From assembly GCF_055900595.2 (NCBI RefSeq), contig NZ_CM148325.1: a stretch of DNA of 64,000 nt, one strand, 5' to 3'. Below are positions 16,653 to 17,573 of this stretch, one piece after another. Position numbers and translations under genes: made by a program. Within the stretch, counting starts at the first letter, position 1. Each line of letters starts with the position of its first letter. Below the pieces are notes generated by a model. The model saw only the letters and a list, made by a program, of their open reading frames with translations, had not been told where the DNA came from and ran no database searches.

Positions 16653-17573
16653 TTAGTTAATTAGCTTATCAAGCTCAGCAAGAGGTAAATTTGCCATCTC
16701 TGCAACGTCTTCTCGAGACATCCCTTTACTCAAAAGACGCTGGGCGAATTCCTGCCTTTCCTCTTGTCTTGCCTCCTGTCTTCCCAGCTGAATCCCCTTC
16801 TCAATCCCTTTTTCAATTCCCTTCTCTTCAAACCACTGCGCCAACGTCATCATAGACTCCCCTCCCGTTTCCCTGTCTCTCAGCACACCATAAAACAAAT
16901 CCGCTTGTTCAGTATGACCGCGTTGCAGCATATAGTTTTGCATGGCAACTAACTGACTTCCGCTAGTGTACCCTTCGTCAATCAGCGTGACCAGTTGCTC
17001 CAGCAATAACATTAAGTCGCGCTGGCGAATATGTTTTTGCAGCAGTTCGAGAATCGCAATCCGCCGATGTTGCATGATTTCGTCATCCGGTGTGATAGTG
17101 ATATCCACCAGCGGGAAAGGACTGTTATAGACGCGTCGCGCCAGCTCCGGCGAGTAAAACATATCAAACCAGCACATTGAGAGCGGATAAGGTGTGGCCT
17201 CGCCCTGATAAAACAGAATCGGCACCACCAGCGGCAGCTTATCGTGATCTGCCTCCAGATGCCGGTGCATGGCAGCAATAGAATAACGCATCATGCGAAA
17301 CGCCATTTTTTTATCCGGCTTGCTTTGGTGTTCAATCACAACATGTAGATAGCCCGTATTACCCTGCATTTGCACGGAATAGAGCACGTCAGTGCTGTGC
17401 CCTTTCAGGCTTTCTTCAATAAAACTCCCCGACTCAAGATGCAGCGTGTCGAGATCACACAGTTCGCGTAGCTCCGCTGGCAAATGGATATCCAGAAAGT
17501 CGCGAGCCGTTTCCGCGTGCATTAAAAATTGTTTAAACACCGCATCATGCGGTGTGGTACTCGGTGCATCCAT
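16653..17573 (-). CDS. rpnC: Recombination-promoting nuclease RpnC (PD-(D/E)XK transposase_31 family)
   Basis: 306-aa ORF recognised as YadD/RpnC; carries a C-terminal EKGI x3 micro-repeat. Confidence 0.85.
   Translation of the reverse strand: MDAPSTTPHDAVFKQFLMHAETARDFLDIHLPAELRELCDLDTLHLESGSFIEESLKGHSTDVLYSVQMQGNTGYLHVVIEHQSKPDKKMAFRMMRYSIAAMHRHLEADHDKLPLVVPILFYQGEATPYPLSMCWFDMFYSPELARRVYNSPFPLVDITITPDDEIMQHRRIAILELLQKHIRQRDLMLLLEQLVTLIDEGYTSGSQLVAMQNYMLQRGHTEQADLFYGVLRDRETGGESMMTLAQWFEEKGIEKGIEKGIQLGRQEARQEERQEFAQRLLSKGMSREDVAEMANLPLAELDKLIN

Follow-up and report, generated by a model that had tools for sequence, protein, structure and literature searches.

Why should a nuclease gene carry short in-frame tandem repeats close to its 3′ end, and does the number of units matter to the protein or simply drift? 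The question is posed by a stretch of 64,000 nucleotides from contig NZ_CM148325.1 (assembly GCF_055900595.2; hereafter the window), in which an earlier note had picked out three tandem 12-bp units encoding EKGI in a gene that it named rpnC, and had proposed that the length of the segment may differ between strains.

Much of the answer is already in print. Zhong et al. (2023; PNAS 120:e2307382120; PMC10400941) described an antitoxin, RpnS, that is encoded inside the nuclease gene itself. Each of the five rpn genes of E. coli contains an internal start, from which a small RpnS identical to the RpnL tail is made, and RpnS blocks the toxicity, SOS induction and DNA cleavage caused by RpnL (PMC10400941). 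RpnA_L associates with RpnA_S in a 2:2 complex, and RpnA_S itself, built of three helices, dimerises via its long helix 1; this helix bears four-amino-acid repeats, the number of which varies between strains (PMC10400941). Production of RpnC_S in K-12 is supported by ribosome profiling and by an SPA-tagged protein, while the antiphage activity reported in the same study belongs to the plasmid protein RpnP2 and not to RpnC (PMC10400941). The feature in the window is this published repeat of the RpnC nuclease and its nested antitoxin, and involves no new biology. What we add is small: a strict four-residue step over 40 alleles, the rarity of the window's combination of three EKGI and three xQE units (3+3), and signs of recent single-unit duplications, which bear on a question left open in PMC10400941, namely how the dodecamer repeats expand.

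The gene and its two 12-bp arrays

From its sequence, the open reading frame that contains the repeats is rpnC, a member of the Rpn family (Table 1). The product matched the NCBIfam Rpn family model TIGR01784 (5.4e-87; 292 bits, cut-off 52), and its N-terminal domain matched Pfam Transposase_31 (PF04754, YhgA-like; 2.1e-87) over positions 1–201 of the 203 in the profile. The gene is flanked by panC (15581–16432, plus strand) and panD (17847–18227, plus strand) and is convergent with panC, and annotation comparison places K-12 b0132 likewise. Matches annotated as rpnC were present in 5,424 of 5,426 complete E. coli genomes. Family models, position and annotation thus all bear out the name given in the earlier note. 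In these complete genomes, only eight records reached at least 99% identity to the window's rpnC, most lying at 90–95%.

A candidate PD-(D/E)XK catalytic motif, D62 ... E81-H-Q83-S-K85, was assigned by eye. When full-length RpnC was compared with PDB sequences in a single-sequence search, the only match was the Trp repressor (E=0.76), which is not relevant. The sole match in PADLOC-DB was to the RpnC tail (16653–16859, residues 239–286), with model PDLC01084 ‘C3a178 putative invertase’ (E=2.6e-5); no PADLOC model covers the nuclease domain at the N-terminus, and this defence library of 2023 would thus not pick out Rpn as a defence system.

The three units of the first array are AATCCCCTTCTC, AATCCCTTTTTC and AATTCCCTTCTC on the plus strand and read GAGAAGGGAATT, GAAAAAGGGATT and GAGAAGGGGATT on the minus strand, in frame with rpnC, to give EKGIEKGIEKGI, or (EKGI)x3. 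Tandem Repeats Finder returned the coordinates that had been proposed by inspection (period 12, 3.0 copies, 79% matches, score 51), and the location near the C-terminus was also correct, the array occupying residues 250–261 of 306. The differences among the three units are all synonymous, third-position changes. The RQEARQEERQE stretch had been described as adjoining the EKGI repeats, as indeed it does, but it is more than the low-complexity sequence it was taken for: Tandem Repeats Finder reported a second array here (16750–16782, period 12, 2.8 copies, score 45), which encodes GRQE, ARQE and ERQE and is itself variable in copy number, with two to eight xQE units among alleles.

Table 1. Positions of features in and around rpnC within the window
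Feature	Coordinates	Strand	Description and basis
rpnC (yadD), full ORF	16653..17573	-	306 aa; RpnC_L toxin, PD-(D/E)XK DNA endonuclease
N-terminal nuclease domain	16953..17555	-	residues 7-207; Pfam match
Shine-Dalgarno-like GGGAGGGGAG	16857..16866	-	upstream of internal start; sequence
Internal start ATG ATG (M241, M242 of RpnC_L)	16848..16853	-	opens RpnC_S; in frame with rpnC
Nested rpnC_S ORF, MMTLAQWFEEKGIEKGIEKGIQLGRQEARQEERQEFAQRLLSKGMSREDVAEMANLPLAELDKLIN	16653..16853	-	66 aa; antitoxin; translation, tail homology
Predicted long first alpha-helix of RpnC_S	16728..16844	-	residues 4-42; AlphaFold2
EKGI array	16791..16826	-	residues 250-261 of RpnC_L, 10-21 of RpnC_S
GRQE ARQE ERQE array	16749..16784	-	residues 264-275; Tandem Repeats Finder and allele table
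G+C-rich hairpin	16566..16588		between convergent rpnC and panC; terminator-like on plus strand; terminator scan

A nested frame for the antitoxin RpnC_S

The earlier note missed the RpnC_S open reading frame that surrounds the repeats. In an alignment of seven divergent rpnC alleles, the internal ATGATG was invariant and the Shine-Dalgarno-like sequence GGGAGGGGAG was nearly so, with one position either G or A. The EKGI units begin at RpnC_S residue 10, the ATG ATG lying nine codons upstream of the first unit. In all RpnS proteins, repeats of four amino acids start 8–20 residues past the initiator methionine (PMC10400941); the window's array falls within this range and in this respect fits the RpnL/RpnS class. 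We infer that RpnC_S is translated from the internal ATGATG in the window's strain. A consensus promoter scan upstream of the internal start within rpnC found no sigma-70-like site, and inspection of the same region by eye was unconvincing; the internal transcription start of rpnC rests on dRNA-seq data cited in PMC10400941.

In order to examine the structural setting of the repeats, we built an AlphaFold2 model of RpnC_S from an alignment of 24 tails. The model (mean pLDDT 78) has helices at residues 4–42, 47–53 and 58–65, with both arrays inside helix 1, in agreement with PMC10400941, according to which this helix is extended by the repeats. For residues 11–30 confidence was only moderate (mean pLDDT by block, 69 and 68). 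A profile built from RpnC_S-type tails matched the sequence of PDB 7TH0, which is RpnA_S, with E=1.9e-7 over profile positions 21–59. On the combined strength of profile and model, the RpnC tail is homologous to RpnA_S and is predicted to fold as a domain of three helices, the first of them long. When the RpnC_S model was used in structure searches, 7TH0 was not among the matches, and the fold searches were uninformative. Against a set of Pfam models without PF27070, a family that precomputed annotations list for many homologues, the tail gave only sub-threshold matches (HTH_7, HTH_3 and DUF2802).

Copy number varies by whole units among strains

To compare alleles, we took the translated rpnC tails of 15 complete genomes together with those of the best database homologues, which gave 40 distinct tails, and measured the array between a conserved WF and an F-[A/V]-[L/Q]-R anchor. 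Array lengths were 11, 15, 19, 23, 27, 31, 35, 39, 43 or 47 residues. Every one of these leaves a remainder of three on division by four, corresponding to a strict four-residue step (40/40 alleles). The alleles contained 0, 1, 2, 3, 4, 6, 7, 8 or 9 EKG[I/M] units and 2 to 8 xQE units. Variation in length between strains, as had been proposed, is thus borne out; a repeat number identical in all alleles, which the earlier note had named in advance as the result that would count against it, was not seen among the 40.

The exact 119-nt array of the window (3+3) was found in eight of 5,426 complete E. coli genomes. The commonest form is the K-12 allele with two units of each kind (2+2), at roughly two thirds of genomes as estimated from evenly spaced samples of the ranking; frequencies of common alleles are sample-based estimates, and the exact count applies to the window's own array. 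When a 3+2 allele was used as query, K-12-type 2+2 genomes tied with the true match; identity bands mix partial and full matches. Arrays of equal length can differ in composition: natural alleles with 27 residues comprise 0+6, 2+4, 3+3 (the window) and 4+2.

Among the 36 EKG[I/M] units of 15 alleles, variation was synonymous (GAG/GAA, AAG/AAA, GGA/GGG) except for three ATT-to-ATG changes (Ile to Met), which points to selection on the peptide. The longer arrays of database homologues contained more substitutions, such as VKGM, ERGI and EIGI. Strain 504239 has the K-12 allele plus one perfect extra GAGAAAGGGATT, with both flanks 100% identical; in strain 25DN, GAGAAGGGAATT occurs four times in succession without change; in strain 2017-02-2CC, GAGAAGGGGATT occurs three times in adjacent, identical units; and neighbouring units are also identical in several xQE arrays. 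Such identical adjacent units point to recent duplications of whole 12-bp units, which would most simply be gained and lost by slipped-strand mispairing or by unequal exchange or recombination. No two of the window's three EKGI units are the same; its array is therefore no fresh expansion.

Two database clusters, P0025 (259 aa, 161 members) and P0032 (243 aa, 71 members), contain RpnC shortened just past the internal start. They read like frameshift alleles, but this reading is unlikely. In two Logan assemblies (L018 and L019), P0025 is found in the middle of a contig; there GGGG has become GGG in the EERG codons and the number of units is unchanged. Since the small gene downstream is frameshifted in the L018 and L019 contigs as well, the change is probably a homopolymer sequencing error.

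A stand-alone tail gene, rpnC_Ss, encoding 65–71 aa and starting MEIKTRRETRQTLAQWFEEKG..., lies between rpnC and panC in 1,556 of 5,426 complete genomes, and was examined in loci L002–L005 and L008–L010 (about 1590–1830). It is absent from the rpnC–panC spacer of the window.

A proposed role in toxin–antitoxin pairing

We consider it probable (about 0.85) that the repeats act as a module for length and register in an interaction helix which RpnC_L, the toxin, has in common with RpnC_S, the antitoxin. According to this proposal, the full open reading frame would give RpnC_L, a PD-(D/E)XK DNA endonuclease that would be toxic if unrestrained, and an internal ribosome-binding site with the ATG at codon 241 would give RpnC_S, a 66-aa protein with the same sequence as the RpnC_L C-terminal tail. 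The (EKGI)3 and (xRQE)3 arrays would sit in the long first helix, the counterpart of which is the dimer interface in the RpnA_S crystal structure. Each 12-bp unit would add four residues, roughly one helical turn or about 6 Å, and leave the helix unbroken. The number of repeats would then fix how long the interface is and in which register it lies, and so decide which RpnS binds and silences which RpnL; complete 12-bp blocks would come and go, most simply through slipped-strand mispairing or unequal recombination. Since one DNA segment encodes both toxin and antitoxin, an added or lost unit alters the two at once and the pair stays matched.

Whether copy number alters Rpn activity, a test suggested by the earlier note, had already been addressed by experiment for the K-12 protein. 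RpnC_S with one added KGIE unit fails to block RpnC_LS, and the converse combination fails too, whereas an extra KGIE in both K-12 RpnC partners restores blocking (PMC10400941, Fig. 4D). The window's rare 3+3 allele probably behaves like K-12 RpnC in its specificity, as follows from orthology and conserved anatomy. By analogy with the published result for one added repeat, the window and K-12 alleles are predicted not to neutralise each other.

The stand-alone RpnC_Ss arrays differ in length from the adjacent rpnC arrays, which a pure model of length matching leaves unexplained. It is conceivable, though doubtful, that the 27-residue alleles of differing composition (0+6, 2+4, 3+3 and 4+2) are mutually non-cognate, and that specificity follows a two-dimensional code. 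If this were so, the window's 3+3 allele would be a separate specificity class, and pairing would depend on both the length and the make-up of the helix; the published work on specificity varied length alone (PMC10400941). Phage pressure may be what drives variation in the repeats. If the module acts as proposed, the repeat is a compact, natural and tunable element of protein–protein specificity in which one 12-bp change re-keys both partners, and RpnC could be useful for understanding how defence and toxin–antitoxin systems diversify.

Alternative explanations

The most durable of the alternatives, although still an unlikely one, is that the arrays are a neutral, slippage-prone linker of low complexity, in which copy number drifts without effect on the protein. 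The wide variation in copy number among alleles would be expected of such a linker, and slippage by 12 bp would by itself stay in frame, so that the strict four-residue step is no proof of selection; the pLDDT values for residues 11–30 are also only moderate. However, in the 15 alleles examined the units differ almost entirely by synonymous changes, Ile to Met being the one exception, and the peptide has thus been kept while the DNA diverged. The repeat region is moreover predicted to be helix rather than coil, and in K-12 an added KGIE abolishes cognate inhibition while the matching change in the partner restores it (PMC10400941), a result that already speaks against neutrality.

It is improbable that the array is instead a recombination hotspot at the level of the DNA, possibly one cut by Rpn itself, with the changes in copy number and the duplicated rpnC_Ss gene as by-products. 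The authors of PMC10400941 raised the possibility of Rpn-linked recombination at the repeats, and the frequent presence of the duplicated tail gene directly downstream of rpnC would be in keeping with it. So would the unusual divergence of the rpnC–panC region from K-12: DNA identity is 93.3% for panC, 93.8% for the panD–rpnC spacer and about 94.6% for rpnC, the 30-nt difference in length aside, and 96.3% for panD. Within rpnC, the N-terminal part has 94.7% DNA identity to K-12, and only 89–91% in the first 240 nt; only four of the 240 N-terminal residues differ. The low identity around rpnC could reflect either a divergent lineage or local exchange of alleles. Set against a hotspot as the whole explanation are the conservation of the peptide despite synonymous divergence and the switch in specificity at the protein level, both of which argue that a coding function is selected; recombination at the DNA level could supplement the interaction-helix module rather than replace it.

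We regard as highly implausible a phase-variation (contingency) switch, in which gain or loss of units would turn RpnC on and off. A 12-bp unit cannot shift the frame, and all of the intact alleles were in frame (40/40). The shortened products of clusters P0025 and P0032 read like the frameshifts that such a switch would produce, but the lesion in P0025 is the lost G in GGGG, and the further frameshifts in the same contigs make sequencing errors likely.

Finally, although the EKGI units match one another at only 79%, chance similarity of three short segments can practically be discounted, since two neighbouring arrays of the same period occur in one gene and in varying copies in thousands of genomes, whereas dinucleotide-preserving shuffles of the window (n=100) gave a mean of 0.41 arrays scoring at least 45 per shuffle (maximum 2) and 0.1 per shuffle with a period of 9 or more divisible by 3.

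Comparison with related systems

Among known systems, the one closest to the window's gene is K-12 RpnC (YadD, b0132), with which it shares the panD–panC locus, the domain architecture, the internal Shine-Dalgarno sequence and ATGATG, and both types of repeat (EKGI/KGIE and xQE) in helix 1. The two differ in that K-12 has two EKGI and two xQE units and an RpnC_S of 60 aa ending ...KVINLI, whereas the window has three of each and an RpnC_S of 66 aa ending ...KLIN. RpnA_S (PDB 7TH0) resembles RpnC_S in the match to the tail profile and in the three helices, the first of them long, that are predicted for RpnC_S; unlike RpnC_S, it has 49 residues and lacks the repeat insertion. The stand-alone RpnC_Ss and DUF4351-type small proteins have a homologous tail and four-residue repeats of their own (FQKG, in one or two copies), but the N-terminus of RpnC_Ss, MEIKTRRETRQ..., is unlike that of the window's RpnC_S.

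A parallel with the TAEL repeats of HsdS in EcoR124I and EcoR124II was drawn in PMC10400941. There too, an in-frame repeat of four amino acids (12 bp) serves as a helical spacer, and its copy number, two or three, changes specificity. The proteins are unrelated, however, and the HsdS repeat sets the spacing of DNA half-sites, whereas that of RpnC would govern toxin–antitoxin pairing. Simple-sequence contingency loci likewise vary as short tandem DNA units are gained and lost, but their units are not multiples of three and act as on–off switches for genes through frameshifts, while the 12-bp units of RpnC always stay in frame and alter protein length.

Surroundings of rpnC in the window

The hairpin between rpnC and panC (Table 1) was invariant in all seven aligned alleles. 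The spacer between the two genes is 220 nt in the window and 73 nt in K-12, the window having a 128-nt insert at 16434–16561. We take this insert to be an ERIC/IRU element, with perfect matches to the ERIC1R (16478–16499, minus strand) and ERIC2 (16500–16521, plus strand) primers back to back at its centre. O157:H7 has the same element in the spacer and a further insert of about 70 nt, and K-12 and the strains with rpnC_Ss lack the element. What is presumably a second ERIC core, with one and three primer mismatches, is located at 36730–36773, between lpd-like (35233–36690, minus strand) and aceF-like (36982–38874, minus strand) open reading frames.

Two other tandem repeats were seen in the window. 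One, at 34823–35058 (period 102 nt, 2.3 copies, 83% matches), encodes an in-frame 34-aa repeat near the 3′ end of a 619-aa DUF3300 open reading frame (33302–35161, plus strand). The other, at 38039–38853 (period 303 nt, 2.7 copies), reflects the three lipoyl domains encoded by the E2 acetyltransferase open reading frame at 36982–38874 (minus strand), which has Pfam matches to Biotin_lipoyl (three), E3_binding and 2-oxoacid_dh, and is ordinary.
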